A stretch of DNA of 64,000 bases from Planctomycetota bacterium (GCA_021831565.1 JAKBMM010000002.1:39440-103439); one strand, 5' to 3'; shown: positions 3,955 to 28,823, counted from the stretch's first letter. Program-made: numbers and translations. Notes: generated from the sequence alone by a model not told the origin.

Positions 3955-5442
3955 TCACCATAAAAAAATCAGCCACACCAATACCAATACCGGCAACAAC
4001 ACGGGAATCGCGTAGCGTGCGATATACGTGAAAAAGCCGGGACATTGAACTCCTTCGTGTTCGGCAAGACTCTTGATAATGAGATTCGGCCCATTGCCGA
4101 TCCAGGTGCAAGCGCCAAAAAACACGGCGCCCAGGGAAATCGCCAACAGGTAAATGCCGCCGTTGGGCTGCGCCAAAACGGCTGTTCCAGCCGGAGAGAC
4201 CGCCGGGCGTGGCATAGAGGCGGACCGGTGAGCTGTTCCAACGGTCCCGGCCGCCGCCCGGCTCTGGAGACAGGCCGCATAGGTCGGCGCGTTGTCCAAA
4301 ACCGCTGAAAGTGCGCCGGTCAGAAAATAACAGCGGCCCGGCGTGGCCGTAAATGTCGTCAATTGACCTCTCGCCGCGCGGCTGGCCAGTAAATTCAGCA
4401 CTGGGGCCAGCGTCAGGAAAATGCCCAGAAACAGGACGGCCATTTCCCGCAACGGCTTGAAGCTCAAGCGATTCGCGACACGAACACTGTTCGGTGTCAG
4501 CAGCAGCGACAGGCCCGCGGCCAGCACCAGGACCATCTCCCGCCAGGGAGCGGGAACAAACAGGCTGCCGAGCACCGGTAAAATCAGCGCCAATTGCCCC
4601 AGGCCGGCAATGGCGACGGCCTGGCTCTCTTGAACCGACGCATCGCGCGGGCAGCGCCGATCCAGAAGGTAAAATACCGCCAGCGGCAAACCCACTGCCA
4701 GCAGCCAGGCCAGCCAGGCGTGTTGCAGCATCCACCAGAAGGGAACACCCATCAGGTAACCGAGCAACAAAGGCGGATCGCCCAGCGGCGTGAGCGCGCC
4801 GCCGATGTTGGCCACAAGGAAAACAAAAAATATGACATGGAACGGCCGAATGTGCCCGCGGTTCATCTGTAGATAGGGCCGAATCAGCACGATGCCGGCG
4901 CCGGTCGTGCCCAGGATGTTGGCCAGCACCGCGCCTGCCAGTAAAACCGCAACATTGACCGCAGGCGTGGCCGGCCGCCGCACCCGCACCAGAATTCCCG
5001 AGGAAATAATGAAAAGCGCGCCGACCAGGCTCATAAATTTCAGATACAAGCCCAGACTTGCCGCCACCGGCCCCGCCGCTTGAAACCACACACCATAACC
5101 GATGGCCGCCGCAGCCCCCAGGCCAATGGCAATGACGGCATAAAATCGATCCCACAGTTTGGCCGCCAGAGCCGGCAACACGCTCATCGCCAGCAGCATG
5201 AGAACGAACGGAGCGGCCCAGAGAATATTCACCGCCGGCGGAACGGTTTGTTTACCCACCGCCGCCAGAACCCGGGTAAATCCCGCCACGCCGATCAACG
5301 CCAATGCGATCAGAACAATCACCAGGCGCGGATGCAGGCGCGACGGCCCTTCGTCGGCGGCCTGCGTCCGCCGGTCGGGATACCCAAGGTGAACGGACAG
5401 CCGGCCGCGCCCGCGCTCTGCTGGAAGAAACGATCCGACCAT
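3955..5442 (-). CDS. Polytopic membrane transporter (about 12-13 TM; ArsB/NhaD-like ion-transporter superfamily suspected)
   Basis: 495-aa ORF with ATG start and hydrophobic helices throughout. Product assignment is weak. The overlapping 409-aa ORF in another frame is judged an artefact. Confidence 0.5.
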   Translation of the reverse strand: MVGSFLPAERGRGRLSVHLGYPDRRTQAADEGPSRLHPRLVIVLIALALIGVAGFTRVLAAVGKQTVPPAVNILWAAPFVLMLLAMSVLPALAAKLWDRFYAVIAIGLGAAAAIGYGVWFQAAGPVAASLGLYLKFMSLVGALFIISSGILVRVRRPATPAVNVAVLLAGAVLANILGTTGAGIVLIRPYLQMNRGHIRPFHVIFFVFLVANIGGALTPLGDPPLLLGYLMGVPFWWMLQHAWLAWLLAVGLPLAVFYLLDRRCPRDASVQESQAVAIAGLGQLALILPVLGSLFVPAPWREMVLVLAAGLSLLLTPNSVRVANRLSFKPLREMAVLFLGIFLTLAPVLNLLASRAARGQLTTFTATPGRCYFLTGALSAVLDNAPTYAACLQSRAAAGTVGTAHRSASMPRPAVSPAGTAVLAQPNGGIYLLAISLGAVFFGACTWIGNGPNLIIKSLAEHEGVQCPGFFTYIARYAIPVLLPVLVLVWLIFLW

Positions 5443-5692
5443 GAGGACCCATCATGTCGGCAATTGTCGTTTATGACCAGCCCGGCCCCGCGCCTGCTTC
5501 GAAAGATTATTCCGCTTCTTCGTGACGACGGCCCCATCTATCACCTCCCAGCGAGGAAGCCAGGGACATTTTCAGAACGATTTTCAAACACGGTAAAACG
5601 AAAGTTGCCAGGCCGAGGCCGGGGTCGGCGGGCGGGGGCGGGTTGGTGGCTAAATGATGCCACCCCTCGCCGGTCAGTTGACCGCGGTCCGG

Positions 5693-5974
5693 CTATTTGT
5701 GTCCCACAGGTCCACCGGCGGTAAGGTATTTCCGCTCCACCGCCTGCGCCAAGTCAATATCGTGGATATTCGCCAGCGTGCAGAGCCAGGCCAGAACATC
5801 GGCGAATTCCTCCTCCTGGTTTTTCCGATTTTTGCCCTGCAGCGCCGTGGCCAGCTCGCCGACTTCCTCCACAAACCACATGAACGTGGCGGCGGTTCCG
5901 CGCTCGCAATCGCGTTGCGAATATTTGTTCCGGATATGCCCCTGGAATCCGGCGATACTCAGAGAATCCACCAT
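5693..5974 (-). CDS. MazG-like nucleotide pyrophosphohydrolase (small single-domain)
   Basis: MVDSLSIAGFQ...FVEEVGELATAL...EEEFADVLAWLCTLANIHDIDL matches the MazG EExxE / ADVL helix motifs. Start taken at internal ATG 5974 of ORF 5693..6061. Confidence 0.65.
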   Translation of the reverse strand: MVDSLSIAGFQGHIRNKYSQRDCERGTAATFMWFVEEVGELATALQGKNRKNQEEEFADVLAWLCTLANIHDIDLAQAVERKYLTAGGPVGHK

Positions 5975-13742: not shown

Positions 13743-14276
13743 GTGAGCGGCATCATGATGGACATTCCAACGCTGGCCAGGCGAATAAAAGAAATTGCTT
13801 ATCTGGAGGGCGATTTCACGTTGCGATCGGGAAAAAAATCCCCTTACTATCTGGACAAATATCTTTTTGAAACGCAGCCGGACATCCTGGCGGCGCTGGG
13901 CGCTCATCTGGCCGGGCGGCGCTCGGGGGCGACGGTCCGCATCGGTGGCGCCGAGCTGGGCGGCGTGGCGTTGGCGGCCGCCGCCAGCCTGGCCAGCGGT
14001 CTGCCTTTCTTTATCGTGCGCAACGCCCGGAAAGGCCACGGCACGAACAGGGTCATCGAAGGGACTATGGCGGCGGGAGATGCGGTGCTGCTGGTGGAGG
14101 ACATCGCCACCACCGGCGGGGCGGTGCTGGCGGCGGCGAAGATCATTACCGCCGCCGGCGGGCGGGTGGAGAAGGTTGTGGCGGTGATCGACCGGCAGGA
14201 AGGGGCCAGGGAAAATATCGAAAAAGAGGGGTTTATATTTGAATCGATTTTGACCCGTCAGGACCTGGGTATTTAG
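13743..14276 (+). CDS. pyrE: Orotate phosphoribosyltransferase
   Basis: The PRPP-binding motif VLLVEDIATTGGAV is present and the length is typical. GTG at 13743 or ATG at 13755/13758. Confidence 0.85.
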   Translation: MSGIMMDIPTLARRIKEIAYLEGDFTLRSGKKSPYYLDKYLFETQPDILAALGAHLAGRRSGATVRIGGAELGGVALAAAASLASGLPFFIVRNARKGHGTNRVIEGTMAAGDAVLLVEDIATTGGAVLAAAKIITAAGGRVEKVVAVIDRQEGARENIEKEGFIFESILTRQDLGI

Positions 14277-14333: not shown

Positions 14334-15668
14334 ATGATGGATCAGAAAAACCACCGCCGGCATCGCGTCCGAAAATGGATCACGACGACGCTCAAGATTC
14401 TTATTGCGGTCGTGGGGTTATGGTACGTCATATCGCGCATTTCCTGGAGCGATCGCGTAATTATCCCCAGAGGAATGGTGATCCGGAACGTCACTTTTGT
14501 CCATCCCGCCGTGGTGGAACTTCTGGGCTGGCGGGGCAAACTGGCGCGGGTGCGGTTTAAGAACCAAACGATCACCGTGCGCCTGCCTTCCGGCCGGGTG
14601 GTTCGCGGCTTGGCGACTCGCGCTCCGCTTGATTTTCCGTCGGTGCTTCTGTTGCCGCGTAATTACCTGGCGCATTCCAGCGGCAAGCTGGAAATAAAAT
14701 TCGGTTTGGAGCACCTTCTCACCACGGCCAACCCGTGGCCGCTGGTTGCGGCGCTGCTGCTGCTGGGACTGCCCTTTCTGATTACGACATGGCGCTGGCG
14801 GAAACTCCTGGCGGTGCAGGGGCTGAACCTATCCTATGGAAAATGCCTGACGCTGACTTTCGTGGGGCAGTTCTACTCAACCTTTTTGCCCGGGACCACC
14901 AGCGGCGACGTGGTGAAAATCATCTACACGGGGCGGATCACCGGTCAGAAGACCAAAAGCGCTATTACCGTTCTGCTGGACCGTGTGATCGGGCTGGTGG
15001 GGTTGATGATCGTCGGCGGCTTGGCGGCGGGGGGGCAACTGCTCTTGGATCTGACGTATCGCCGCGCCGGAGTCGGACGGTCGGCGGATCCCCTGCTGCT
15101 GCATGTGCTGGGTCTTATTGCGCTCCTGCTGCTGGCGCTGGGGGCGGGGGCGATGGTCTATTTTTCCACCCGCCTGCGGCGGTGGCTGGGGATGGACGCC
15201 CTGCTCGCCCGGCTGCCGTTGCCGGAATTCATCAAACATGCCGACCGCACGCTGCGCGCTTACCGCGGTCATAAAGGCGTGCTGGCCGCGACGCTGCTGG
15301 CGAGCATGGTTTCCCAGGCCCTTCTGCCACTGGCCGGATGGCTGGCGGGACAGGCCTTCGGGATGCGCGCCCCCTTCGGATTTTACATGGCTTATATACC
15401 GGTGGCGGTGCTGGCGTCGAGTCTGCCGATTGTCCCGCCGCAGGGTCTCGGAGTGCTCGACGCGCTGATCTTGCACTTCTTCGTGATACGGGGCGTGGAC
15501 ACCGCCAGCCAGGCGTTCGCTCTGGCCCAGGCCATCCGTTTCATGCCGATTTTCTGGAACATGCTCGGAGCGTACTGGGTGGTCCACGATCACTACTCAC
15601 GACCCCATCTGGAAAGCCTCCAAGAATTGGCGCCGGAGAATGGCGCGGCCGCACCGGCGGGAATGTGA
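14334..15668 (+). CDS. Integral membrane protein, flippase-like / lysyl-phosphatidylglycerol-synthase TM-region family (UPF0104)
   Basis: About 8 TM helices; FVGQFYSTFLPGTTSGDVVKIIY matches the conserved UPF0104 loop. Confidence 0.5.
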   Translation: MMDQKNHRRHRVRKWITTTLKILIAVVGLWYVISRISWSDRVIIPRGMVIRNVTFVHPAVVELLGWRGKLARVRFKNQTITVRLPSGRVVRGLATRAPLDFPSVLLLPRNYLAHSSGKLEIKFGLEHLLTTANPWPLVAALLLLGLPFLITTWRWRKLLAVQGLNLSYGKCLTLTFVGQFYSTFLPGTTSGDVVKIIYTGRITGQKTKSAITVLLDRVIGLVGLMIVGGLAAGGQLLLDLTYRRAGVGRSADPLLLHVLGLIALLLLALGAGAMVYFSTRLRRWLGMDALLARLPLPEFIKHADRTLRAYRGHKGVLAATLLASMVSQALLPLAGWLAGQAFGMRAPFGFYMAYIPVAVLASSLPIVPPQGLGVLDALILHFFVIRGVDTASQAFALAQAIRFMPIFWNMLGAYWVVHDHYSRPHLESLQELAPENGAAAPAGM

Positions 15669-15684
15669 ACGAGATTATCGCAGT

Positions 15685-15800
15685 ATGGTTTACGGTTACG
15701 GAAGGACGGCCGTGGATTTCCATCCACGGCTGCGGGGGGGGCGACCATGGAGCAGCCGCGAGGATCGCAATCCCGCGGCCGTTTTGTGCGCCGCCGCGAG
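15685..15800. repeat. Copy A of a roughly 115-bp structured repeat element (three consecutive hairpins)
   Basis: About 95% identical to the reverse complement of 57431..57547. Contains hairpins CCGTGGAT-TTCC-ATCCACGG, CGGCTGC...GCAGCCG and CCGCGAGGAT / ATCCCGCGG. Confidence 0.65.
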
Positions 15801-15820
15801 CAATCATATTTGATATGTTG

Positions 15821-15850
15821 TTGGCAAAAATCGGCATCTAACACTAAAAT
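15821..15850 (+). promoter_or_regulatory. Putative promoter TTGGCA-N18-TAAAAT for hipBA
   Basis: TTGGCA at 15821..15826, TAAAAT at 15845..15850, about 30 nt upstream of the hipB ATG. Confidence 0.3.
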
Positions 15851-15879
15851 ATGATCCTTATATTGCCGATGGAGATGGT

Positions 15880-16194
15880 ATGGACGCGGCACCGGTCCAA
15901 CTGCACAGCCCTAACGAGATTGCCCGCCAACTGGCGCAGCACGTCCGCACCGAACGTCTCCGCCGCCAATGGAAACAGGAGACGCTGGCCAGGCGTTCGG
16001 GCGTGTCGGTGGCAACCATTCGCCGGTACGAACGTACCGGCCACACGTCGCTTGTGAACCTGCTGAAGCTCTGCCACGCGTTGGGCCGGCTGGATGAGTT
16101 CGCCGGCTTGCTCCAACCGCCACCCGCCACGTCGCTGGCCCAACTCGAATCCCGTGCCACCAAGGTCCGGGGGCGCAAACGAGGTGTGCGATGA
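15880..16194 (+). CDS. hipB: HipB-like HTH (XRE-family) antitoxin
   Basis: HTH segment ETLARRSGVSVATIRRYE. Stop overlaps the hipA start (ATGA). Confidence 0.7.
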   Translation: MDAAPVQLHSPNEIARQLAQHVRTERLRRQWKQETLARRSGVSVATIRRYERTGHTSLVNLLKLCHALGRLDEFAGLLQPPPATSLAQLESRATKVRGRKRGVR

Positions 16195-17441
16195 GGCAAC
16201 TGACGGTCAAACTGCAACGCCGGCCAGGCGACGCTCTGACGGTCGGCACGCTGGCAGAGCATGATCGACACACATACTTCGAGTACGACCCCACATTTCT
16301 CAACACCGGCTTTGAGCTCTCGCCCTTCAAGCTGCCCGCCCGGCCCGGCTTGATCGAACATACCGACCGCGCGTTCGGTCCGCTGCCCGGCGTGTTCGAC
16401 GACTCCCTGCCCGACGGTTGGGGTCTGCTATTGATGGATCGTCACTTCCGCCGCCAGGGTGTCGACCCCATGACGTTGTCCCCGCTCGATCGGCTCGCCC
16501 ACCTCGGCGCCCGCACCATGGGCGCTCTGGTCTACCATCCGCCGTCCCGCCAACTGCCCGAGCGCGACGAGCAACTGATCAATCTCTACGATCTTGGCCG
16601 CAATGCCGAGGATGTGCTCGAAGGCGACGCCGCCGAGGTGCTGCCCGAACTGATGCGGGCTGGCGGGTCGCCAGGCGGCGCCCGCCCCAAGGTACTCGTG
16701 GGCGTCCAGGGCGACCGCATCATCTCGGGCGCAGAGGATCTGCCCGAGAGATTCCTTGGTGGCGGGGGCGAGCATTGGATCGTCAAGTTCGCCGCCAAGG
16801 CGGACGCTCCCGCGGCCGGTCCCGTCGAATACGCGTATAGCCTGATGGCCCGGGCCGCCGGGGCGGACATGCCGCCGACTCGCCTATTCGAGGTCAGGCG
16901 CGGCCGCAGTGTCCGGCGGTACTTTGGCGTCAAACGGTTCGACCGCGCCGCTGAAAACCGGCGCGTTCACATGCACACCTTCGCCAACCTGGTGCACGTG
17001 AACTTCCGCATCCCCGCGACCGACTACGCTGATCTGTTGAAGGTGACGCGGGCGCTGACACGCAACCATGCCGACCTGCTGCGCCTGTTTCGGCTGATGC
17101 TGTTCAACATCGCCGCCCACAACCGCGACGATCACGCCAAGAACTTCGCCTTTACGCTCGACGATCAGACCGGCGAATGGTCGCTCGCCCCCGCCTACGA
17201 CCTGACTTACTCGCCCGGCCCCGGTGGCGAGCACACCACCACCATCCTCGGCGAGGGCCGCCAGCCAACACGCGGCCATTGCTTGAAGCTGGCCGATCAG
17301 TTCGGACTCAAACCCGGCGAAACTCGTCCCATCATCGACCAGGTCAACACCGCCATCAGCCACTGGCGCCGGTTCGCCGAGCAGGCGGGCTGCGCGAAGA
17401 AGATGGTTGTCGCGATCGGCAAGGCAATCGCCGCAATCTAA
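16191..17441 (+). CDS. hipA: HipA-family serine/threonine kinase toxin
   Basis: HipA N- and C-terminal domains. GGARPK ATP-binding motif (SPGGARPKVLV) and catalytic HNRDDHAKNFAF loop. Confidence 0.85.
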   Translation: MRQLTVKLQRRPGDALTVGTLAEHDRHTYFEYDPTFLNTGFELSPFKLPARPGLIEHTDRAFGPLPGVFDDSLPDGWGLLLMDRHFRRQGVDPMTLSPLDRLAHLGARTMGALVYHPPSRQLPERDEQLINLYDLGRNAEDVLEGDAAEVLPELMRAGGSPGGARPKVLVGVQGDRIISGAEDLPERFLGGGGEHWIVKFAAKADAPAAGPVEYAYSLMARAAGADMPPTRLFEVRRGRSVRRYFGVKRFDRAAENRRVHMHTFANLVHVNFRIPATDYADLLKVTRALTRNHADLLRLFRLMLFNIAAHNRDDHAKNFAFTLDDQTGEWSLAPAYDLTYSPGPGGEHTTTILGEGRQPTRGHCLKLADQFGLKPGETRPIIDQVNTAISHWRRFAEQAGCAKKMVVAIGKAIAAI

Positions 17442-17528
17442 CCCAGCGTGAGATGGTTCGTCGTACCGTTGTGGTGAATCAACCTCTCCGCGGCTCCGTG
17501 TGAGTTCGTTGTTGTCCTCATCAGCGTT

Positions 17529-17720
17529 TCACATGCCGGCGTTCATAGGTGTCCAGGATACTGTGGTACACGTGGTATCTGGGATTTTAAACGCGTAGGA
17601 ATATCTTTCGACTTGCTTGGACTGTTCGGCAGCGTAAATTGTTCGCGATACAGAGAGGCTGTGGTCGTGCTCGGCTACAGCGGCCAACCCCGTCTCCAAT
17701 TTCTGAAGATCAGCGTCCAT
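17529..17720 (-). CDS. Small hypothetical protein (63 aa) with strong RBS, downstream of the 329-aa islet gene
   Basis: AGGAGA RBS 6 nt upstream of ATG. Low GC like the islet; co-directional with the 329-aa gene, 77 nt after its stop. Confidence 0.45.
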   Translation of the reverse strand: MDADLQKLETGLAAVAEHDHSLSVSRTIYAAEQSKQVERYSYAFKIPDTTCTTVSWTPMNAGM

Positions 17721-17797
17721 CTGATTTCTCCTTCGGTAGCGAAAGTGGTTCGCTCGAATCCGATAACAAATCGATTTTCCGCCTCATTTCTCAGTGC

Positions 17798-18787
17798 CTA
17801 CCACTTCGCCTCACGGAGTTTGGAAGCAATTTCCTTGACGTTCGATGGGTCGATATTGGTTTTGGGGATTACCTCCCGCAGGTCGTGGAAAAGGGGACCC
17901 TGGATTGCATAAGGCGAGTCCTTTCTGTACTCCGTTTGCTCGGGGACTCCACAGAAGAAGCGATGGCCAGTTGAGACCTCCCATCCAAGGTCTTTCTTGG
18001 CCGCGTTTATTATGCCGATTATTTTGCTGTCGTATTCGGTTGTTTCGCGCCCGTCGACCAGCGTCTTGGTGAGGCGATCATTGACATATTCCGCGTCATA
18101 AATTGAGTCAACTGCCCAGATGCACGGCACATTTTTTTGTGCATATATTCCTAGAAATTTGTGTTTTCTATAGCCGCGATCTTGCGCATGGAAATAGACG
18201 CCGAATTGCTGGTTAATTTTTACCGTTTCGCTGCACGGAACGATTCGGAGGAGGAATTTCGATTCATCGAACAGCCCCGTGTCACTGCAATAGTCTATAT
18301 AATCTTCCACTAACGCAAGCATCTGCGGCTCGTGTTCCTTGAACATCGACTTAATTTCGTGGCAAATATCCTCGTAGGTGATGTTGCGAAAAACGAGGCT
18401 GGGAACTTGTTTTGCGATTTTGCCCCCCTCTATGGCGGATAACTGTTGTCGTTGTCGGGTTAGCAGGAGAAGTATTTTCTGGGACTCATTTGAAAAGCTA
18501 GTTGCATGCCGGGAGAGTTGGTCTAGGTTGACACCACTGTTGACCTTCGATTCCACAAGAATCTTGAAGCTCCGTTGGATTATGGCGCCATCAGGCACCG
18601 ATTGTTTGTTGCGCGGCTGCTGGTTGACTTCGATTCCCACAACTATTTCCTCCCCGCAAAGCTTGGTTAGCAGATTCGACAGGTGCTGCGGGGAATAATC
18701 GTATATGCGAGCGAGGAGTTGGAGCGTGTTATTTGTGACAGTATTCTCTTGGCCTGAATATCGCGGAAAATAATGGATTTTAGACAC
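17798..18787 (-). CDS. Hypothetical protein (329 aa) in a low-GC islet, with an N-terminal PD-(D/E)xK-like motif (VPDGAII...ILVESKV)
   Basis: Long ATG-initiated ORF with codon usage clearly different from its surroundings. No family recognised beyond the nuclease-like PD...ESK spacing. Confidence 0.6.
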   Translation of the reverse strand: MSKIHYFPRYSGQENTVTNNTLQLLARIYDYSPQHLSNLLTKLCGEEIVVGIEVNQQPRNKQSVPDGAIIQRSFKILVESKVNSGVNLDQLSRHATSFSNESQKILLLLTRQRQQLSAIEGGKIAKQVPSLVFRNITYEDICHEIKSMFKEHEPQMLALVEDYIDYCSDTGLFDESKFLLRIVPCSETVKINQQFGVYFHAQDRGYRKHKFLGIYAQKNVPCIWAVDSIYDAEYVNDRLTKTLVDGRETTEYDSKIIGIINAAKKDLGWEVSTGHRFFCGVPEQTEYRKDSPYAIQGPLFHDLREVIPKTNIDPSNVKEIASKLREAKW

Positions 18788-19280
18788 GTGTGGCTCCTTT
18801 CGCGCTCCCCGTTAAGACGATGTGACTGGGTGCATTGCGGGGACGGCATGCACCTTCACGGGTTATTCTGATGATGGCACCATCATATTTCACTTGCCCC
18901 AAATGCGACTCTAACTGGGATCCCTATTGCCCGCAAGCTTTATGCGCTAATGTTCTGTTAAACCGGCTCCCATCATTTCCGCCAGCGCCTGCGGCGTGGC
19001 GACTTTTTCTCGTCCATCAGCAGCGTGTTTTTATCTGTTGGAGTGTACCCGGTACGGTGAAACCGGAATTTGACCCAACCGCATATAAAACAAGCACTTA
19101 CGGTTTTTTATGCGTAGAACTTCGGATTAAGTTAACGCTTATGGTGAGGACGCCCCGCACTCCCAGGGGCGTCCGAAAAATTACCGCGCCCGTCGCACCG
19201 CGGCGAACCCCGGATAGGCAAGCGGGCTTCGCCCCCCGCGCTTTGGCAAACGCATGGATATAACGTCATTGGCGCCGCAA

Positions 19281-19368
19281 CGGAGAGAGTGGGATTCGAA
19301 CCCACGGTGGGGTCATCCCCCACACACGACTTCCAATCGTGCTCCTTAAGCCGCTCGGACATCTCTCC
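19281..19368 (-). tRNA. tRNA-Ser (anticodon GGA)
   Basis: Minus-strand sequence GGAGAGATGTCCGAGCGG...GTGGGTTCGAATCCCACTCTCTCCG. Perfect 7-bp acceptor stem, T-arm GTGGG-TTCGAAT-CCCAC, long variable arm, anticodon loop TTGGAAG. No encoded CCA. Confidence 0.9.
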
Positions 19369-19398
19369 AGAATCCCGGCGATCCGGGATACCTGTAAA

Positions 19399-20262
19399 CT
19401 ACCGTTCGTCCGAAGGTACGTCAATTTTCTCCCGATTTACCCCGGCGGCGGGCGACCGGGAAGGATCGGGATTCCGCCGGCCGTCGATCCGGCCGATCAG
19501 CCGCAACAGACCGTCGAGGATGGTCAGGGGATGCGGCGGGCAGCCGGGAACGAAAAGATCAACGGGCACAATGGAATCGGCGCCATGGTGGACCTGGGGA
19601 TGATCGCGGTACGGTCCGCCGGAAATGGCGCACGCGCCGATGGCGATGACTATTTTCGGTCCGGGCACGGCATCATAGGTTTGTACAAGGGCGGATTTCA
19701 TGTTCCGGGTAACCGGGCCGGTGATCAACAGACCGTCGGCATGGCGGGGCGAGGCGACAAAATCAATTCCGAAACGTCCCAGATCCCAGCCAATGGTGGT
19801 AAGCACATTGACATCGGCCTCGCAGGCATTGCAGCCGCCGGCCGAGACCACGCGCAATTTCAGCGAGCGGCCCAGGAGTTTGCGGAGTTTATCGTCCAGG
19901 GCCGCGGCGAGCGCCGGCTCGCCGTCGGGGCCTACCAGCAAGTCCGCGCGCCGCCGAACCGCCAGGCGATAATCACGCGAATATTGAATCGCGCCCGTCG
20001 GGCAGGCTTCGGCGCAATCGACGCAGAACAGGCAGCGGCCCAGATCCAGTTCGATGCGGCCGGCGGCGATGGTGATGGCCCGCGTGGGACAGGCCTGGGC
20101 GCACAGGTCGCATGAATCGGGGCACCGGGCGGCATCGAATACGGGCCGGGCACGGAAATGCGGCGCCAGCGCCGGCGGAGCGCCGTCGGGATAGGCCATG
20201 GTCTGATGGCCCTGTTGGAATCGGGCTTTGACAATATCGAACATAAAACGTTCCTTCACCAA
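19399..20262 (-). CDS. Fused 2x[4Fe-4S] ferredoxin (NuoI/HycF-like) + NuoB/HycG-like small subunit of a complex-I / group-4-hydrogenase-like module
   Basis: N-terminal CPDSCDLCAQACP and CLFCVDCAEACP. NuoB-like part has GGCNACE (hydrogenase-type CxxC), IGACAISGGPY and PGCPP proximal-cluster ligands. Confidence 0.8.
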   Translation of the reverse strand: MVKERFMFDIVKARFQQGHQTMAYPDGAPPALAPHFRARPVFDAARCPDSCDLCAQACPTRAITIAAGRIELDLGRCLFCVDCAEACPTGAIQYSRDYRLAVRRRADLLVGPDGEPALAAALDDKLRKLLGRSLKLRVVSAGGCNACEADVNVLTTIGWDLGRFGIDFVASPRHADGLLITGPVTRNMKSALVQTYDAVPGPKIVIAIGACAISGGPYRDHPQVHHGADSIVPVDLFVPGCPPHPLTILDGLLRLIGRIDGRRNPDPSRSPAAGVNREKIDVPSDER

Positions 20263-20268
20263 TCCGAA

Positions 20269-21786
20269 TTATAGATCGTGACCGCAGTAAGAAAGACTAA
20301 AACTCTTATTGCAGAGCGGGAAATCGGAAATTTGCCCGCCGCGCATCGCCAGGGCCAGCCCCATCCAGTTATGGAACGACGGATCAACCACTTTATAACG
20401 CTCGAAGCGGCCGGCGGCGTCGGTCAACGCCAGATGGCATATTTCGCCGCGCCACCCTTCCACCAATGCTACGGCCAGATGATCGGGCGCCAAATTTCCC
20501 ACCGGGGAGCTTATGGTTCCGGGCGGGAGGGATCGAAGCTGTGTCCGGACAAAGTCCAGGGATCGCTGAATTTCCAACCAGCGGACATAAGCGCGGGCGA
20601 AGACATCGCCGCCGTCCCAGGAAGAAACGGGGATATGTATAAACCGGAATAAGCCGGAGGGATGGTCCTGCCGGGCGTCGCGGGTAAGTCCGCAGGCGCG
20701 GGCCACCGGTCCGACCATGCCCAGTTCAACGACCGCGCGGCGCGTCACCGGGCCGATGCCCTCGAAGCGGGCCATCACCGAGGACGAATTCCAGAGCAAT
20801 TCGACGGCCTGGCGGGTCTGCCGGCCGCAAATATCCAGTTTCGCCAGCAGATCGTTCACGGTACAAGTGGCCGGATCAAAACGCACGCCACCCGGTCGAA
20901 TCAGTCCGCGTCCGAACCGGCTGCCGCAAAGAGCGGCCGTCATGTTCAGGAATTCACCGCGCAGGCGTCCGCAATAAGAGGCGGTGGGAAGAAAGCCCAC
21001 GTCGCCGCTGAGCGCCCCCAGGTCTCCCACGTGATTGGCCAACCTTTCCAGTTCCAGGGCGATGCCGCGAATGCTCTGCGCCCGCGGCGACTTCTGTTTG
21101 CGGGCCAACGCTTCGAGCACCTGGCAGTAAGCGGTGGCGTGTCCGATGGTGGTGTCGCCGGCGAGCGTTTCGGCGTAATGGATGGTGCGATGATTCGGAC
21201 CGCCGAGCAGTGCTTGCTCCACTCCTCGATGCTGGTATCCCAGCGCCATCTCCAGGTGAAACACAACTTCTCCGTGGCACTGGAAGCGGAAATGTCCCGG
21301 CTCAATGACGCCCGCGTGGACCGGTCCCACGGCCACCTCGTGCACTTCCTCCCCCCGCACCTGGTAGAAATCCATCACTCCCGGCGGCGCGACGCGATCG
21401 TTCCCGGGCCGGCCCGATGGAAACAATGGCGGATGAAAACGGAGCGGTTTGAGCCAGGGATGTCCGACGATATCCAAACCACACTGTTCGGCGATTTCCC
21501 GTTCAAAGAGATGTACCTGCGGACACCGGGGCGTTAAAGAAGGGTAGTGCCGGCCCGCCAGCGTGGAAGCGACCCGGAGAATGGATTGGGTATCGTCCGC
21601 CAGAACCACATACAGGCGCAGGCGATCCGGTGCTTCGAGCGAACCAAACAGGCTTGCCACCCGCCGGCCCGTGCGTACCGCATCCAGAATGACTTGCTGG
21701 AAGTTGTCCAGGGCCAGGTCGGGAATCAAACGACGGCTGATGGCGCGTCCGGCGCCGAGCAGGGGTAAAGAGTCGGCCTGATTCAT
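20269..21786 (-). CDS. Fused NuoC-like + NuoD/[NiFe]-large-subunit-like protein lacking all Ni-Fe-ligating cysteines (Ehr-type)
   Basis: NuoC motif FEREIAEQCGLDIVGHP; NuoD-like GPVHAGVIEPGHFRF...HRGVEQ. No CxxC anywhere; the C-terminus has DPSFHNW where hydrogenases have DPCxxC. Confidence 0.8.
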   Translation of the reverse strand: MNQADSLPLLGAGRAISRRLIPDLALDNFQQVILDAVRTGRRVASLFGSLEAPDRLRLYVVLADDTQSILRVASTLAGRHYPSLTPRCPQVHLFEREIAEQCGLDIVGHPWLKPLRFHPPLFPSGRPGNDRVAPPGVMDFYQVRGEEVHEVAVGPVHAGVIEPGHFRFQCHGEVVFHLEMALGYQHRGVEQALLGGPNHRTIHYAETLAGDTTIGHATAYCQVLEALARKQKSPRAQSIRGIALELERLANHVGDLGALSGDVGFLPTASYCGRLRGEFLNMTAALCGSRFGRGLIRPGGVRFDPATCTVNDLLAKLDICGRQTRQAVELLWNSSSVMARFEGIGPVTRRAVVELGMVGPVARACGLTRDARQDHPSGLFRFIHIPVSSWDGGDVFARAYVRWLEIQRSLDFVRTQLRSLPPGTISSPVGNLAPDHLAVALVEGWRGEICHLALTDAAGRFERYKVVDPSFHNWMGLALAMRGGQISDFPLCNKSFSLSYCGHDL

Positions 21787-23216
21787 GGCTTGGCTCCCAG
21801 ATATCGGCTGGCCTGGTGCAAAAGGTCCCGCAGCGGCGGCGGCAGATACAGCCCCAGCAACAATACCATCAGCAGAGCACCCAGCGCCGGCAGACCACTC
21901 AGCAGGCCATCGCGGTAATTGTTCCGCGCGGCGGCTACGGGCGCCCGGCCCAGCACGGCGGCGAGCACGGTTCGCCCCATTCCCAGGAAAATCACCAGCA
22001 GCAGAAACAGAAACGCCGCGCCGATCAGGAAATGCCCGGCGGCAAAGGCGCCGTTAAGAATCATGAACTCACTGATAAACGGGCCGAACGGAGGCGATCC
22101 GGTGATGGCCAGAAAACCCAGCATAAACACCGTGCCCGAGAGAGGCAGCCGTCGCATGGCGCCGTGCACCTGCGGTATGGTTTTGCCGCCGTAGGCCCGG
22201 TCGATGTTGCCGACGGAAAGAAACAGCGATCCCTTGGTCAGGCCGTTGTTGATCACGTGCAGCATGGCGCCCAGCAGAGCGATACCGCCGATTCCCAGTC
22301 CCAGCGCAAGAATTCCCATGTGTTCCACACTGGAATAGGCGAGCATCCGCTTGAGGTCCTTCTGGCCGATCATAAATATCGCCGCGAAAAGCATGGATAA
22401 AAGCCCCAGAAATATCAGGAGCCTGGAGGCATAAGCGCCATCGCCGGCGGCATACAGGATGTGCTCGGATCGCACCACCATAAGAAAAGCGCTGCTGATG
22501 AGCGCTCCGGAAAACATGGCCGAAACCGGAGCCGGGCTTTCGCCATGGGCGTCCGGCAGCCAGGAGTGCATCGGGGCCAGGCCCATTTTGGTTCCATAGC
22601 CGACCAGCAGCAGGACAAATCCGGCCTGAAGCCAGACCTTGTTGAGCCGGGGCGCCTGGCGAAGCAGGTCGATGATTTTCAGGGAAGGCGTCATTCCCCG
22701 GCTCACGGCGGAGTAAGCCACGAAAAATGATCCGAGCAAGGCCAGAGCGATGCCCACGGAGCAGATCAGGAGATATTTCCAGGTGGCTTCGATGGACTGC
22801 GGCGTGCGGTTGAAATATATCAAAGGCGCGGAGCTAAGGGTGGTGGCTTCCATGGCCACCCACATCAGGCCGAGGTTGTCCGTGCAGATGACCAGGGTCA
22901 TGGCGCCCAGAAACAGCAGGAAGCACGAGCAGAAGACGCGATTGGCATGATCGGCGCGGGAGCACAGGTATCCCGCCAAATAAAAAGAACACAGCAGGAA
23001 CAACACGCTCACCAGAAGCAGCACCACGCGCCCGGGCGGATCGATCTCCAGCCAGCCCCCGCGCGCGCCGCCGCCATATCCGGCCAGAATGGCCAGGACC
23101 AGGCCCAGGTGGGCGATCGCCACGGGCGGCAGGAGCCAGGGCCGCCGGCGGTTGGAGGGCAGCAGCGCCGCCAGGGCGGCGGCGAGAGGACATAGAATAA
23201 TAAGTGCAATGTACAT
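21783..23216 (-). CDS. NuoN/NuoM/MrpD-like antiporter-type membrane subunit (HyfF-like)
   Basis: 477 aa, 14 TM. Conserved WLPDAHGESPAPVSA and LAYSSVEHMG motifs. Start overlaps the previous gene by 4 nt. Confidence 0.8.
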   Translation of the reverse strand: MYIALIILCPLAAALAALLPSNRRRPWLLPPVAIAHLGLVLAILAGYGGGARGGWLEIDPPGRVVLLLVSVLFLLCSFYLAGYLCSRADHANRVFCSCFLLFLGAMTLVICTDNLGLMWVAMEATTLSSAPLIYFNRTPQSIEATWKYLLICSVGIALALLGSFFVAYSAVSRGMTPSLKIIDLLRQAPRLNKVWLQAGFVLLLVGYGTKMGLAPMHSWLPDAHGESPAPVSAMFSGALISSAFLMVVRSEHILYAAGDGAYASRLLIFLGLLSMLFAAIFMIGQKDLKRMLAYSSVEHMGILALGLGIGGIALLGAMLHVINNGLTKGSLFLSVGNIDRAYGGKTIPQVHGAMRRLPLSGTVFMLGFLAITGSPPFGPFISEFMILNGAFAAGHFLIGAAFLFLLLVIFLGMGRTVLAAVLGRAPVAAARNNYRDGLLSGLPALGALLMVLLLGLYLPPPLRDLLHQASRYLGAKP

Positions 23217-23223
23217 ACGTTAA

Positions 23224-23865
23224 TTATCCCTTCAAGGAAGAAAGCCGCCGGGTGTCCAGCGAAGCGAACTCGCGATTGATGTGATGCATGATGATGCTGA
23301 TGACAAAAATGCCGACAAACAGGTCCAGCAGTACGCCCAGCTCCACCAGGGACGGGATCGCGCCGAGCAGAAGCAGACCGAAAACGAAAATGCCGTTTTC
23401 CAGCAGCAGAAAACCGATGGTTTGCGTAAGGGCCTTCACCCGCGTGGTCAAAAGCAGAAAGCCGGTGAAAAGCATGGAGATGGAAGTGGGAATCACCAAC
23501 AGACCCAGAGGGCTTGCGGAAGGCGTGATCCGTCCGGCCAGCACCAGGGCGGCGCCGGTGGCGGCGGCGCCCAGAAGAATGCAGGGCATGAATCCGATGA
23601 TCGGTTCCACCTCCCGTTTGACGTGGGCGTCGCGCAGGGCCTTGAGCAGCATATTGGGAATCACGACGCCTTTGAGCACAACCGTCATCAAGGCCATGAA
23701 CAGCGGTACGAATTGCGCCTCCCGGAGCACCAGGGGAGGCAGCAATCCCAGCAAGATGCCCTGGAGCGCCGCGGCGTGTATCAAAGCCTTCATGCGGCCG
23801 GCGCCCAGGACAAACAGGTTGATCAGAATCACCAGTACAAAAATGGCGTTGAGGGTCATCATCAT
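23224..23865 (-). CDS. HyfE-like small membrane subunit of the complex
   Basis: 213 aa, about 6 TM; size and hydropathy are those of hydrogenase-4 component E. 7-nt gap to the neighbouring genes. Confidence 0.6.
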   Translation of the reverse strand: MMMTLNAIFVLVILINLFVLGAGRMKALIHAAALQGILLGLLPPLVLREAQFVPLFMALMTVVLKGVVIPNMLLKALRDAHVKREVEPIIGFMPCILLGAAATGAALVLAGRITPSASPLGLLVIPTSISMLFTGFLLLTTRVKALTQTIGFLLLENGIFVFGLLLLGAIPSLVELGVLLDLFVGIFVISIIMHHINREFASLDTRRLSSLKG

Positions 23866-23871
23866 GGTCGG

Positions 23872-24810
23872 TCACCGCAGCAGCAAAAGAAATCCAAAAC
23901 CGTTCAAAAGACAGGCGGCAACCAGAAGCGTCGGCACCAGTCGAAGCTGCAGCCGGGCCATGATGGATTCCACCACGCCAATCACACCCGCCACCGCCAG
24001 CAGGCCGGGTATGGTCATCGCCCAGTTTTCCCAGATCCATCCCTGATTCAGCGGGAGCAGCACATGGAGCAGCAGGGCGCCGAGGACCAGAAGTTTGACG
24101 GCTGATCCGTAAATCTGCGCCGCCAGCAGGGGGCCGCTGTTGTCCAGCACCAGCACCTCATGTATCATTGTCAATTCGAGATGTGTATTTGGATCATCAA
24201 TGGGCAGACGGGAGGTCTCCGCCAGGAGCACCACGAACAATCCGAACGCCGTGAGCACCAGCGCCGCCGCGGCCGTGGAATCAATAGCGACATGTGTCGC
24301 GGGCGCCAGCATGGTGCTCAGGCTCAAGGTTCCGGAGAGTTTCACCAGCACCAGCAGCGCCAGAAACAACGCCGGTTCCGAAAAGGAGGCGAAGGTGAGT
24401 TCCCGGGCGGCCCCCATCCCCTCAAACGATGAGCCGGTATCCAGCGCCGCCAGAATGGTGAAAAATCTCCCCAGCGCCAGCAGGTAAGCAAACAGGATCA
24501 GATCGCCGGTGAAATGCACGGGAGCCGCGGTCGGTCCCAGCGGAACAAGCAACCCCGCCAGCAAGACGCTGGCCAGGGAAATCAGCGGCGCGGCCGAAAA
24601 CACCCAGGTTGTGGTGGAACTCAGCACGACGCCTTTGCGCATGAGCCGAAGCAGATCGTAGTAAGTCTGGAAAAGCGGCGGGCCGACGCGCCCGGCGAAC
24701 CAGGCCTTGGTTTTGTTGATAACGCCCGGCAGCAATGGCGGCAGAAGCACCAGCAGCAGGATCTGAAAAGCAATCGAAATAAGCGTATTCATAAAGTCAA
24801 TAGCTCGCAA
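23872..24810 (-). CDS. NuoH/HycD/HyfC-like membrane subunit
   Basis: 312 aa with 8 TM. Conserved IDDPNTHLELTMIHEVLVLDNSGP-type loop (the E/D-rich quinone-channel loop region). Confidence 0.75.
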   Translation of the reverse strand: MRAIDFMNTLISIAFQILLLVLLPPLLPGVINKTKAWFAGRVGPPLFQTYYDLLRLMRKGVVLSSTTTWVFSAAPLISLASVLLAGLLVPLGPTAAPVHFTGDLILFAYLLALGRFFTILAALDTGSSFEGMGAARELTFASFSEPALFLALLVLVKLSGTLSLSTMLAPATHVAIDSTAAAALVLTAFGLFVVLLAETSRLPIDDPNTHLELTMIHEVLVLDNSGPLLAAQIYGSAVKLLVLGALLLHVLLPLNQGWIWENWAMTIPGLLAVAGVIGVVESIMARLQLRLVPTLLVAACLLNGFGFLLLLR

Positions 24811-24828
24811 ATATCGTGCGACCGCCCC

Positions 24829-26796
24829 TCAAACCAGCAACAGCACCAGAACAATCAGCAAGACGTAAAGCAGATACAACTGCACCGTACCGCTCTGAAA
24901 AATCCTGGCGGATTTAAGGGTATTCCCGGCCTTGTGCAACGCCGGTTGCACAACGCTCTCCAGCAGCGGGTCCGGGGTATGAGAGGCATAGTTCGATGGT
25001 TGGGGAAAAACGCCCTGAATCCGCGGTTGTCGCCGGGTGGACCACACAAGCCAGCGCAGCATTTCTGTGAGCGCTTGCGTGAGCGATGAGCCGGTGTACT
25101 GCATGCGCTGGTTGGGAGAGACGTAACCACAACCCCATGTCCGGCCGGGGTTACGGATCCGGGCGTGCCGCCAGGGTATGGCCAGCACCCCGATCAGTCC
25201 GCCCGCGAAGAACAGGGCCAGGGCCACAGCGGTAAAACAGCCCAGGGGAATAATGGTTTCCAGGGGGATGGGCGCGTTCCAAGGCGTCCAGGCTCGAATC
25301 GCATGATCCAGAAGTCCTGTGAACAACTGCGGAAAAATGCCGACGATCGCACAGCCGGCGGCCAGCAGCAGCATGGGCGCCAGCATCATGGACCCCGGCT
25401 CATGGGCGTTGGCGGCCGCCGCGGTTCGCGGTTGGCCGGCGAATGATGTCGCCGTGAACTTGATAAACGTCGTCATGGCCAAAGCCCCGACCATGGCCAA
25501 CAGGGGAACGGCCAGTGCGGCCCAGCCGGCGGGTGTTCCCCCCTGGAGCGTTTTGAATAATCCCAGGTAAATGAACAGTTCGCTGACAAAGCCATTCCAT
25601 GGCGGCAGAGCCGAGATGGAGGCCGCTCCAACCAGCATCAGCCAGAAAAGCGTCGGCATTCGTCGGGCCAGGCCGCCCAAAGCCTCCAGATCGCGGGCGC
25701 CCGTGCCGTGTATGATTCCGCCGGCGCCCATGAACAGGAGCGGTTTGAACAGGCTATGATTGAACATGTGAAGCAGCGATCCCCCCAGTCCCAGCGCCAC
25801 CCAAAGCGGGTGTTGCAGGGATAGTCCCAACACGGCCAGCCCCAGACCCGTCATGAGAATGCCGATATTTTCAATGCTGCTGTAGGCCAGAAGCCGCTTG
25901 CAGTCCCTCTGCGCACAGGCCCATACAATTCCCAGGAAAGCCGAGAGCATTCCACAACTGAGCAGCACCGCTCCCCACCAGATCGGTGGATGACCCGCGA
26001 TGGCGGCCACCCGCACGATGCCGTAAACGCCCATGTTCAGCAGCACACCGGAAAACAGCGCCGATACGTGGCTAGGGGCATTGGCGTGCGCCCCCGGCAG
26101 CCAGACATGCAGCGGGACCAGACCGGCCTTGCAGCCAAATCCCACCAGCCCCAGAATAAACAGAGCCGCCAGCATCGCTCTCGGCAGGTGCGTCAGGCCG
26201 GTCGGCCAGAGATTTAGCGAACCGGACCCGACTCGGAGCAATACGAAAAAGGCGATCAGACAGAGTGTGGCAATATGGGTGGCGATGAGGTAGACCCATC
26301 CCGCCTGTTGCACTTGCGGCCGACGGTCCTCGGTTATCAGAAGAAAGTAGCCCGCCATCGCCATGATTTCCCAGGCGATGAGGAATTCCACGCTGTTGGC
26401 GGCGAGAACCACCAGGATCATTCCGGCGGTCGTGATTCCCCAGAATAAACGGAGTTTGCGTCCATCCGCGGGATGCCGCCGCTGCGGCCAATAGCCCAGG
26501 CCATAGACGGACCCCAGGGCGGAAATCAGAAAAATGGGAAGTAAAAACCAGGCGCTTAAGTCATCCAGTTGCAAGGCGGGCTTGCCGATCGGAAAGCGGT
26601 ATGTCGTGGCCCAATGCAACGGAGCGGCCGCCGCTAGATCATGGCGCAACAGTACCGCGATGCCGAGGGCGCTGGCCAGCACATGGATGGCCATCGATAG
26701 TACCGGCCCGCGCGCGCTGCGCCGGCCGGACACCAGCGAAGGCAAGCCGCTTCCAGCGATCAATAGAGCGGCGAGAATCAGAAGAAACATGGTCAT
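24829..26796 (-). CDS. NuoL/MrpA/HyfB-like antiporter-type subunit, paralog 1
   Basis: Start taken at MTMFLLI (ATG 26796; GGAG RBS 9 nt upstream). Conserved HVWLPGAHANAPSHVSALFSG and KRLLAYSSIENIG motifs. Confidence 0.8.
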   Translation of the reverse strand: MTMFLLILAALLIAGSGLPSLVSGRRSARGPVLSMAIHVLASALGIAVLLRHDLAAAAPLHWATTYRFPIGKPALQLDDLSAWFLLPIFLISALGSVYGLGYWPQRRHPADGRKLRLFWGITTAGMILVVLAANSVEFLIAWEIMAMAGYFLLITEDRRPQVQQAGWVYLIATHIATLCLIAFFVLLRVGSGSLNLWPTGLTHLPRAMLAALFILGLVGFGCKAGLVPLHVWLPGAHANAPSHVSALFSGVLLNMGVYGIVRVAAIAGHPPIWWGAVLLSCGMLSAFLGIVWACAQRDCKRLLAYSSIENIGILMTGLGLAVLGLSLQHPLWVALGLGGSLLHMFNHSLFKPLLFMGAGGIIHGTGARDLEALGGLARRMPTLFWLMLVGAASISALPPWNGFVSELFIYLGLFKTLQGGTPAGWAALAVPLLAMVGALAMTTFIKFTATSFAGQPRTAAAANAHEPGSMMLAPMLLLAAGCAIVGIFPQLFTGLLDHAIRAWTPWNAPIPLETIIPLGCFTAVALALFFAGGLIGVLAIPWRHARIRNPGRTWGCGYVSPNQRMQYTGSSLTQALTEMLRWLVWSTRRQPRIQGVFPQPSNYASHTPDPLLESVVQPALHKAGNTLKSARIFQSGTVQLYLLYVLLIVLVLLLV

Positions 26797-26840
26797 CAAC
26801 AACGACTCCAGACGACTCCATCCCGGCACGCCGGGATCGG

Positions 26841-28823
26841 TTAAAACAGGATCTTCCAGAGCGCTCCCAACGGGAGCGTAATCAGAAGCAGAAAAAGTAA
26901 CATCAAAAGCATATAAAAAAGATAGCTCTGAACGTTGCCCCGCTGGAACACGCGGCCATTGGCCAGCACGGATCGCAAACGCCGCCACCCGGGTTCCAGA
27001 ACGTTTTTCAGGACCGGATCATCCACATGCGAATGGAATTGACCGGGACCGGCAAAGAGGCCCGATAGCCGCGGTTCGCGACGGCGCATGCGCAGCAGCG
27101 GCCGCAATGTACCCAGCAGCATTTGTGCCAGGGAGGAGGCGGTGTACTGCATACGGCTGGAAGACCCGGCGTAACCGCAATTCCACGTCGGTTGGGTCCG
27201 CGCCTGGCGCGCCAGGAACCGCCGGAGAAGGAAAGCGACCAGGAGGACCGCGGCCAGAGACAGATTCATTATGGTCAAGGCGGTTAGCGGAGTCAGCGCA
27301 ACCAGCGCCGGCAGTCCCCGGTGGGCCCAGGCGCTGGTGGTTCGGTTCAACGGCGTTGCCACCAGCGTGGGCGCCATTCCGATCAACAGACATCCGCCGG
27401 CGAGAATCATCATCGGCAGCCAAAACGCCGGGCCGGCTTCGCGCACCCGGCGCAGCTTGGTGCGGGCTGTTCCAAGAAAGACCGCGCCGCAGACCTTGGT
27501 GAAGCACGCCGCCGCCAGCGCCCCGACCATGGCCAGCACTCCGGCAGCCAGAGCCAGTATCGGCAGCACGGTCATTGTTCGCAGAAGCCCCACGTAAATG
27601 AAAAGTTCACTGACAAATCCATTCAGCGGCGGCAGGCCGCAGATGGCGATGGCTCCGAGCAAAAACAGGTTGGAAGTAAGCGGCATGGATTGGGCCAGCC
27701 CGCCGAGCCGATCGATTTTCCGCGTTCCGGCGGCATGGATGACACTGCCCGCGGAAAGGAACAAAAGCGACTTGAACAATCCGTGATTCCAGACGTGCAG
27801 AAGACATCCGGCCATTCCCAGGATGATCCATATCGGCTGATGTTTTGCCTCGCCGATCAGCGCCAGTCCCAGTCCCAACAGGATGATTCCGATGTTTTCC
27901 ACACTGTGATACGCCAGGAGTTTTTTCAGATCGTGCTGACCGATCGCCCATAACACACCGAGAAATGCGCTAAGTGCGCCGAGCGTCATAACCAGAATGC
28001 CCCAGCCGAGCGGTCTGGCCGGAAGCAGCGGCAACACGCGCAGCAGCCCGAAAATGCCCATCTTAATTGTGGTTCCCGATAACGTTGCGGATACATGACT
28101 CGGAGCGTTCGCGTGGGCTTCGGGCAGCCAGAAATGCAGCGGCACCATGCCGGCCTTAACGCCGAAGGCCCCCAGGGCCAGTAGAAATAACGCCGTCTGC
28201 AATCCCATACCGGCCTGTTCCGGCGAAAGCGGACGCAGAAGAAATGATCCCGACGCCATACGCAGCAAGGCAAAAAAGGCGAACAGCAGCAAGGTGCTTA
28301 TGTGTGCCGCCGCCAGATAAACCCAGGCGGCCTGGCGGGAGTCGGGCTTGAAGTCTTCCGTGGCTATAAGGAAAAACGTGCTGATCGCCATGAGTTCCCA
28401 CGCAAACAGAAAGCAAATGCCGTTGTTGCTCAACGTAATCATCGCCATGCTGGAAATGAGTATTCCGTACCAGAATCGCAGTTTCCGGCCGGTCCGGGGA
28501 TGATGACTTTGTTTCCAGTAACCGATGCCATAGAGCGAACATAGGCCGCCGATAAGAAAAATGGGGACCAGAAAAAATGCCGCCAGCGGATCAAGCCGGA
28601 GGTTGGTGGTCATGACCGGCGCCGGTCCGGGACCGGCCAGAGATTCAACCGGGGCGCCAAGCAGTATGGCCATAGCGGCCGTGAGGCCGCACAGCGCGGC
28701 CAGGACGGCCACCAACACCGAAAGCCAATGTCCCCAATTGCGGCGGCGATTGCCCACCATACCTATCAGGCCGCTGGCGGCAAAGCCGCCCGCGCCCAGC
28801 AATGTCATGGTCAGCCACATCAC
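26841..28823 (-). CDS. NuoL/MrpA/HyfB-like antiporter-type subunit, paralog 2
   Basis: 660 aa. HFWLPEAHANAPSHVSATLSG and KKLLAYHSVENIG. First gene of the structural part of the operon. Confidence 0.8.
   Translation of the reverse strand: MMWLTMTLLGAGGFAASGLIGMVGNRRRNWGHWLSVLVAVLAALCGLTAAMAILLGAPVESLAGPGPAPVMTTNLRLDPLAAFFLVPIFLIGGLCSLYGIGYWKQSHHPRTGRKLRFWYGILISSMAMITLSNNGICFLFAWELMAISTFFLIATEDFKPDSRQAAWVYLAAAHISTLLLFAFFALLRMASGSFLLRPLSPEQAGMGLQTALFLLALGAFGVKAGMVPLHFWLPEAHANAPSHVSATLSGTTIKMGIFGLLRVLPLLPARPLGWGILVMTLGALSAFLGVLWAIGQHDLKKLLAYHSVENIGIILLGLGLALIGEAKHQPIWIILGMAGCLLHVWNHGLFKSLLFLSAGSVIHAAGTRKIDRLGGLAQSMPLTSNLFLLGAIAICGLPPLNGFVSELFIYVGLLRTMTVLPILALAAGVLAMVGALAAACFTKVCGAVFLGTARTKLRRVREAGPAFWLPMMILAGGCLLIGMAPTLVATPLNRTTSAWAHRGLPALVALTPLTALTIMNLSLAAVLLVAFLLRRFLARQARTQPTWNCGYAGSSSRMQYTASSLAQMLLGTLRPLLRMRRREPRLSGLFAGPGQFHSHVDDPVLKNVLEPGWRRLRSVLANGRVFQRGNVQSYLFYMLLMLLFLLLITLPLGALWKILF

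Follow-up and report, generated by a model that had tools for sequence, protein, structure and literature searches.

In a 64,000-nucleotide (nt) stretch from the genome of a Planctomycetota bacterium (GCA_021831565.1, JAKBMM010000002.1:39440-103439; hereafter the window), a short segment of low guanine-cytosine (GC) content lies between a hipBA toxin-antitoxin pair and tRNA-Ser(GGA), the sole tRNA gene that ARAGORN predicts in the window. This islet (Table 1) comprises a non-coding leader, one intact gene for a protein of 329 amino acids (aa), a spacer and an open reading frame (ORF) of 63 aa that begins as the stump of a second gene. We consider it highly probable that the DNA from the tRNA 3′ end (19280) to ~17450-17650 was horizontally acquired and occupies a variable hotspot as what trimming has left of a larger defence or toxin-antitoxin island, with the 329-aa gene encoding a stand-alone nuclease that probably serves in defence.

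Table 1 Features at the tRNA-Ser(GGA) locus, in window coordinates
Feature	Coordinates	Strand	Properties
Phosphoribosyltransferase gene	13743-14276		
LPG-synthase-type membrane protein gene	14334-15668		
hipB	15880-16194	+	Pfam HTH_3; NCBIfam couple_hipB
hipA	16191-17441	+	Pfam Couple_hipA, HipA_C
Sequence without assignment	17442-17651	.	~210 nt, 51% GC, from hipA stop codon to deletion breakpoint
63-aa ORF	17529-17720	-	Opens with the 5′ stump (codons 1-23, 17652-17720) left from a PDDEXK_4 / PADLOC PDC-S26-type gene
Spacer	17721-17797	-	78 nt, counted with the 3-nt stop codon 17798-17800; conserved with contig L083
329-aa cargo gene	17798-18787	-	48% GC, third-position GC (GC3) 0.57; predicted N-terminal PD-(D/E)xK nuclease domain and C-terminal beta-rich domain
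Non-coding leader	18788-19279	.	492 nt between tRNA and 329-aa gene; no gene called in public record
tRNA-Ser(GGA)	19280-19369	-	ARAGORN; Rfam RF00005, 51.5 bits
Group-4 hydrogenase / Mrp-like operon	19399-28787	-	Seven genes: three Mrp-antiporter-like subunits, NuoH-, NuoD/C- and NuoB-like subunits, ferredoxin-like domain

GC content falls to 49.1% between 17500 and 19150, the lowest value for any 1650-nt segment of the 64 kb (z = -6.4 against non-overlapping segments), as compared to a window mean of 60.8%; over 17442-19279 it is 50.7%. The sharp drop from ~17450 to ~19150 on which the original prediction was built is thus confirmed, as is the presence of high-GC flanks, albeit at 61-66% rather than a uniform 65%. 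Codon usage, proposed there as a check, gave the same picture, with a GC3 of 0.57 in the 329-aa gene against 0.69-0.81 in neighbouring host genes, so that the islet displays both the atypical composition and the atypical codon usage of a genomic island. It also abuts the tRNA 3′ end as had been described, with atypical DNA starting at 19279. The 180 nt closest to the tRNA (19100-19279), however, are already at 59%, and the leader as a whole is at 55%. Within this leader, an AAAGGAG ribosome-binding site is located 6-12 nt upstream of the GTG start codon of the 329-aa gene.

Variable DNA at the tRNA 3′ end

The proximal boundary was defined by a sister genome (GCA_027334605.1). On one of its contigs (L148), 94.9% identity over 3264 nt (window 22534 to 19281) spans two hydrogenase genes and the tRNA, itself 100% identical, and stops at the last base of the tRNA (19281). 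Past the tRNA, over the 1.7 kb to which L148 extends, lies unrelated DNA of 47-58% GC with an IS3-type transposase helix-turn-helix (HTH) fragment, hicA, hicB and two small ORFs. Content at the locus hence differs between close relatives, with the breakpoint at the tRNA. The tRNA 3′ flank is a variable hotspot that holds different accessory cargo in two genomes with ~95% identical core genes, and the variable DNA has its proximal boundary where the tRNA ends, at 19280/19281. The original prediction had named shared gene content at this position in relatives as the sign of ancestral rather than acquired DNA; this comparison did not return it, L148 carrying other DNA.

A foreign relative of the islet was found on the metagenome contigs L083 and L084, which derive from a 52%-GC organism and have a gene neighbourhood unlike that of the window. 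Window 18786-17656 aligns to L083 5760-6890 with 83.4% DNA identity (1.13 kb), covering the whole 329-aa gene, the 78-nt spacer, identical in length at both loci, and the first 23 codons of a PDDEXK_4 gene, after which the match ends abruptly. On L083/L084, the homologue of the 329-aa gene is preceded by vapBC, a second PIN gene and an RNase T-like gene, and followed by genes for an intact 374-aa protein with a Pfam PDDEXK_4 domain (PADLOC PDC-S26, E = 4e-60) and a Sel1-repeat protein. In a tblastn search with this 374-aa protein, residues 1-23 matched 17720-17652 at 70% identity and nothing more was found in the islet, nor was the remainder of the gene found elsewhere in the window. Since the L083 match ends after 23 codons, the 63-aa ORF is the 5′ stump of this second gene, continued by read-through into unrelated sequence; the rest of the gene is deleted, with the breakpoint at ~17652-17656. 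The cut of the second gene of the shared segment to 23 codons is direct evidence that the islet was trimmed from a larger defence-type island.

We also considered a conserved two-gene system consisting of the 329-aa gene and its PDDEXK_4 neighbour, and rejected it, as the pairing occurs only on L083/L084 and, as a stump, in the window, with unrelated neighbours in other contexts.

Three independent results therefore argue for an acquired and degraded islet with accessory cargo, as had been predicted: the L148 breakpoint with other DNA past the tRNA, the 83% match to foreign DNA in another context, and the 23-codon stump. In the scenario we propose, foreign DNA would have been inserted at the tRNA 3′ end by a tRNA-targeting integrase, later lost, and the resulting larger island would have been trimmed until one intact gene, the stump of the next and neither mobility genes nor attachment (att) repeats were left.

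The sister genome also makes it very improbable that the region is instead ancestral to the lineage and its low GC content intrinsic to the gene family rather than a trace of recent acquisition, as the two genomes differ from the first base past the tRNA despite flanking core genes of ~95% identity. The same is implied by the nearest homologue (87% amino-acid identity), which sits in an unrelated context in the 52%-GC organism, with similarity running into the spacer and the truncated neighbour, and by the spread of the family, with 51-60% identical members in lineages that include Nitrospirota and Fibrobacterota (Chitinivibrio). An ancestral origin would, on the other hand, fit a family that is richer in adenine-thymine (AT) than the host in every context examined, an arrangement fixed in 24 of 24 contigs of the species, and the large synonymous divergence (dS = 0.76) from the nearest homologue. 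These 24 contigs, all with the same arrangement and an identical protein, come from independent assemblies and sources (NCBI, ENA, Logan and JGI, including two separate GenBank assemblies), and the junctions lie inside continuous contigs of 20-113 kb. We thus deem it extremely unlikely that foreign low-GC reads were misjoined into the contig during assembly or binning, even if a metagenome-assembled genome (MAG) as source and the abrupt GC change are what such an artefact would produce.

Searches for traces of mobility bore out the statement that no integrase is present. The record shows no integrase, recombinase or transposase domain in any gene called up to 10 kb away in either direction, and ORFs from the leader (18788-19279) and the stump ORF (17529-17720) gave neither a Pfam or PHROGs match nor an integrase remnant. 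A direct repeat of the tRNA 3′ end, by contrast, which the original prediction had put forward as a marker of the distal boundary, did not materialize: within the window, the 25-nt tRNA 3′ end does not occur a second time even when up to 3 mismatches are allowed, nor does it have any exact repeat ≥13 nt long. Nor did an empty site emerge among relatives. Of 80 loci found via the NuoB-like protein (≥60% identity), a tRNA scan of 58 showed tRNA-Ser beside none of them; the metagenome contig collection did not contain an exact 46-nt piece of the tRNA; and relatives at 67% and 76% identity retain one flank only.

Several of these observations weigh against acquisition at the tRNA as proposed here. 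Two hallmarks of genomic islands, an att repeat and an integrase or recombinase gene, are both lacking, and with neither a tRNA-end direct repeat nor an integrase remnant found, the insertion mechanism is a proposal. In the more distant relatives (67-76% identity) the tRNA adjoins neither flank, leaving the 95%-identity sister MAG as the only informative one of those compared for the site. Given the short sister contig and the lack of an empty site, the distal boundary at ~17450 is set by composition alone. Moreover, the transfer that links window and L083 was not recent, as shown by the dS of 0.76 between the copies, and the 329-aa family was not found by sequence in viral contigs or in phage or plasmid collections. 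The dN/dS between the two copies is 0.09, and the surviving gene is intact and under strong purifying selection.

A phage or plasmid origin was considered separately and discarded, the same collections having yielded no sequence relatives and BFVD a single distant structural one.

Chromosomal defence hotspots and tRNA-adjacent islands have been mapped in Escherichia coli (PMC10121019) and Pseudomonas aeruginosa (PMC10250203); the E. coli study reports tRNA loci as the site of 18 of its 41 hotspots, and no detectable mobile element in most of the occupied instances of one hotspot (PMC10121019). The present locus resembles these hotspots in that variable, atypical DNA starts at a tRNA gene, conserved core genes flank it, and relatives carry different toxin-antitoxin or defence cargo. 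It departs from them in being very small (~1.8 kb with one intact gene), in having neither an integrase nor att repeats, and in that its second gene is cut off: the islet is a decayed remnant, not an active island. As such it is ordinary bacterial genome variation, a textbook case of the documented tRNA-adjacent hotspots, with the tRNA 3′ end marking the hotspot edge to the nucleotide in a little-studied lineage (Phycisphaerae, Planctomycetota) and with a view of how such islands decay to a single gene without mobility signature. The placement in Phycisphaerae follows the names that the nearest homologues of a flanking gene bear in public sources.

The 329-aa gene family and its contexts

The most interesting element of the locus is the cargo family, which is widespread and strongly conserved, carries no annotation and behaves as a mobile solo gene. 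The 329-aa protein matched neither Pfam nor NCBIfam models. A word-indexed search returned >420 homologues, none with Pfam domains and those listed mostly 50-60% identical, the nearest being P0001 on L083/L084. An exhaustive profile search extended the family to 1050 representatives of 50%-identity clusters (E ≤ 1e-3), nearly all of them 325-345 aa long and matching from end to end.

To describe its surroundings, we surveyed 34 loci, corresponding to 28 distinct contexts and 91 nearest neighbours. No Pfam or PADLOC family occurred more than twice among these neighbours, which mix housekeeping genes with PIN, HepT, a WYL regulator, a DpnII-type restriction endonuclease, IS91, reverse transcriptases, Cas1/Cas3, ThsB and candidate defence genes. 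In each of the four contexts where composition was measured, the family gene had a higher AT content than its host, one case being L088, a closed 6.6-Mb genome (43% versus 62% GC). Without recurrent neighbours and AT-richer than its hosts, the family thus behaves as a mobile, stand-alone accessory gene.

In L088, an HTH-WYL-WCX regulator (4919-5896) is encoded ~100 nt upstream of the family member P0104 on the same strand. A WYL regulator directly upstream is an arrangement described for regulators of defence systems. In a Nitrospirota context (L085), a 344-aa gene without annotation (4851-5885) takes the position of this regulator.

Predicted fold and function of the 329-aa protein

The AlphaFold (AF2) models of the 329-aa protein are confident, with a predicted local distance difference test score (pLDDT) of 86 over the full length and 87 for residues 168-329. 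In the model, the N-terminal half follows the alpha-beta-beta-beta-alpha-beta order of PD-(D/E)xK nucleases, with residues of catalytic type in the expected arrangement: D66 at the start of one strand (67-72), E79 and K81 on the next (74-81), between helices 33-44 and 88-96, and E14 in the first helix. Even in a homologue set at 28-46% identity, E14, D66, E79 and K81 are fully or almost fully conserved, the latter three being invariant or ≥90% conserved in the homologue sets at both 51-87% and 28-46% identity, in line with a PD-(D/E)xK motif; the window protein retains all family-invariant residues. It is thus likely that the protein is a PD-(D/E)xK nuclease.

Comparisons with known nuclease families pointed in the same direction at low similarity. 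Pfam PDDEXK_4 was matched weakly (E 1e-4 to 1e-1) by 11 of 31 and 6 of 50 family members, and PADLOC PDC-S26 matched the 329-aa protein partially, over residues 73-167 rather than the full length (E = 1.1e-3). When aligned to the PDDEXK_4 protein of L083 using hhalign, the PD..ExK..DQL..LLLxLT motifs coincided (E = 0.07 and 0.012). The N-terminal domain hence shares this pattern with PDDEXK_4 (PF14281) and PDC-S26, but the protein falls well short of the thresholds of these families, its best hits being partial (E ~1e-4 to 1e-3), and differs in its C-terminal half. The true PDC-S26-type gene of the locus is the truncated second one, its family being judged from the intact L083 counterpart, as the window keeps 23 codons only.

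Sequence searches linked the 329-aa protein to no solved structure. Foldseek with the full model returned MspJI as the best PDB match (E = 5.5e-3), and with the C-terminal beta-rich domain (~168-329) gave weak best PDB matches to ZmASCH, VcaM4I EVE, TTHA0113, YTH, ASC1 and PD-T4-3, a faint likeness to PUA-type (ASCH/EVE/YTH) readers of modified bases. A full-length structural match was obtained in BFVD to A0A8S5N646 of Myoviridae sp. ct8ME27, annotated as PD-(D/E)XK nuclease (E = 2e-14, 17% identity). This is the only strong structural relative that was found, and it is a phage-contig protein, although sequence searches gave no viral relatives.

As to function, we favour a role in defence, with rather less assurance than the nuclease assignment itself. 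The 329-aa nuclease would then cut invading DNA as a single-gene defence. Housekeeping nucleases normally have a conserved context and descend vertically. The family, however, is patchy across phyla at 50-60% identity, has no conserved synteny, is AT-rich versus its hosts and is found repeatedly near toxin-antitoxin, restriction, reverse-transcriptase, Cas and WYL-regulator genes, which makes it unlikely that the protein serves instead as a nuclease in housekeeping or repair, or that it derives from a nuclease but binds DNA in some other role. Such a role outside defence would agree with the lack of a PADLOC match above noise (best E = 1e-3, partial), with housekeeping genes making up about half of the neighbours (urease, SRP54, aldo-keto reductase) and with the family being absent from the phage and plasmid collections.

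If the protein does serve in defence, type IV restriction enzymes offer a model for how it might recognize its target. These modification-dependent enzymes join a PUA-superfamily sensor to a nuclease domain, as in MspJI, VcaM4I/TspA15I and YenY4I (PMC6765204, PMC7897488). The 329-aa protein is like them in combining, on one polypeptide, a predicted PD-(D/E)xK domain with a beta-barrel-like one, for which ASCH, EVE and YTH modified-base readers are the best, if weak, structural matches, and in being encoded by a horizontally transferred solo gene without a cognate methyltransferase partner in the 28 contexts. It is unlike them in that it has no sequence similarity to any, the structural likeness is weak (E ≥ 0.02; MspJI on the full model 5.5e-3; TM (template modelling) score ≤ 0.45), and its domains run from nuclease to putative sensor, opposite to those of the fusions screened in PMC6765204. 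Neither PvuRts1I nor AbaSI was among the structural matches of the 329-aa protein. Both are further type IV modification-dependent enzymes, with the nuclease first and the sensor second.

The parallel with type IV enzymes raises the possibility that a modified base is read by the C-terminal domain, yet that the protein is modification-dependent at all is a tentative proposal, which we hold to be somewhat improbable. More speculative still is the generalization to the whole family, namely that this large group (~1000 clusters at 50% identity, in several phyla, with no Pfam or NCBIfam model) might be made up of type IV (modification-dependent) restriction or defence nucleases that act as single genes, with an N-terminal PDDEXK_4-like nuclease and a divergent C-terminal PUA-like base reader in an order reversed relative to most described PUA-nuclease fusions. 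Should modification dependence hold, the type IV restriction enzymes, which also find use in epigenetic mapping, would gain a new sensor-nuclease architecture through this family.

The distal side and the flanking genes

At its distal side, the low-GC stretch adjoins the complete hipBA pair, which is convergent with the islet genes, has a GC content of 66% and overlaps by 4 nt. With Pfam matches at E = 2.5e-9, 1.2e-16 and 1.5e-50, the pair qualifies as a HipBA type II toxin-antitoxin system. The ~210 nt between the hipA stop codon and the stump (17442-17651) have no similarity to any fetched locus or to other parts of the window, and the compositional distal edge of the islet falls within them.

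The variable block may nevertheless extend beyond this edge, to 15677, and take in hipBA. A second contig of the sister genome (L089; DAHWUN010000080.1) matches window 14669-15676 at 94.6% identity, and the similarity breaks off at 15676, 8 nt past the stop codon of the LPG-synthase gene; in a relative at 67% identity, synteny (ACCA, Pribosyltran, LPG synthase) likewise ends at the LPG synthase. HipBA, in addition, is a typical mobile toxin-antitoxin pair, and hicAB sits at the tRNA of the sister. The accessory DNA would on these grounds run from 15677 to 19280 (hipBA, stump and 329-aa gene) and stem from at least two sources of different GC, its low-GC part being merely the most visible, a reading we find plausible, if short of probable. 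It is at odds with the host-like or even higher GC of hipBA (66%; GC3 0.75-0.81) and with L089 differing on the other side of the match, too, in the N-terminus of the protein and in HEAT-repeat neighbours; besides, no contig joins the two sister flanks. Our main reading keeps to the smaller islet with an edge within 17442-17651. Instead of the orthologous site, L089 may represent a paralogue that has been recombined or rearranged, another rearrangement or a chimeric contig.

The LPG-synthase-type protein encoded on L089 is 557 aa long; the last 1008 nt of its gene are 94.6% identical to the window, while its N-terminal third and the neighbourhoods on both sides, with HEAT-repeat and metallophosphatase genes, differ.

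As for the non-coding parts of the islet, the leader (18788-19279) resembled none of the fetched loci, L083 and L148 included. In promoter and terminator scans the islet did not exceed shuffled sequence, and an Rfam scan for non-coding RNAs returned nothing but the tRNA at family threshold. A match to the plastid psbI-rps4 3′UTR family (19281-19333, plus strand, antisense to the tRNA) was dismissed: at 43 bits it stays below the gathering score of 68 and is almost certainly an artefact of tRNA-like sequence in the model.

On the proximal side, the hydrogenase / Mrp-type operon ends 30 nt before the tRNA and is conserved at 95% in the sister genome and at ~70% in a more distant relative (L149). 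A toxin-antitoxin pair is found near the tRNA in both genomes, hicAB at the tRNA flank of the sister and hipBA beside the low-GC stretch of the window. Finally, window 46064-46231 is 83% identical to the hicB beside tRNA-Ser in L148 (4121-4288), indicating that the window genome holds a related hicB-like copy elsewhere.

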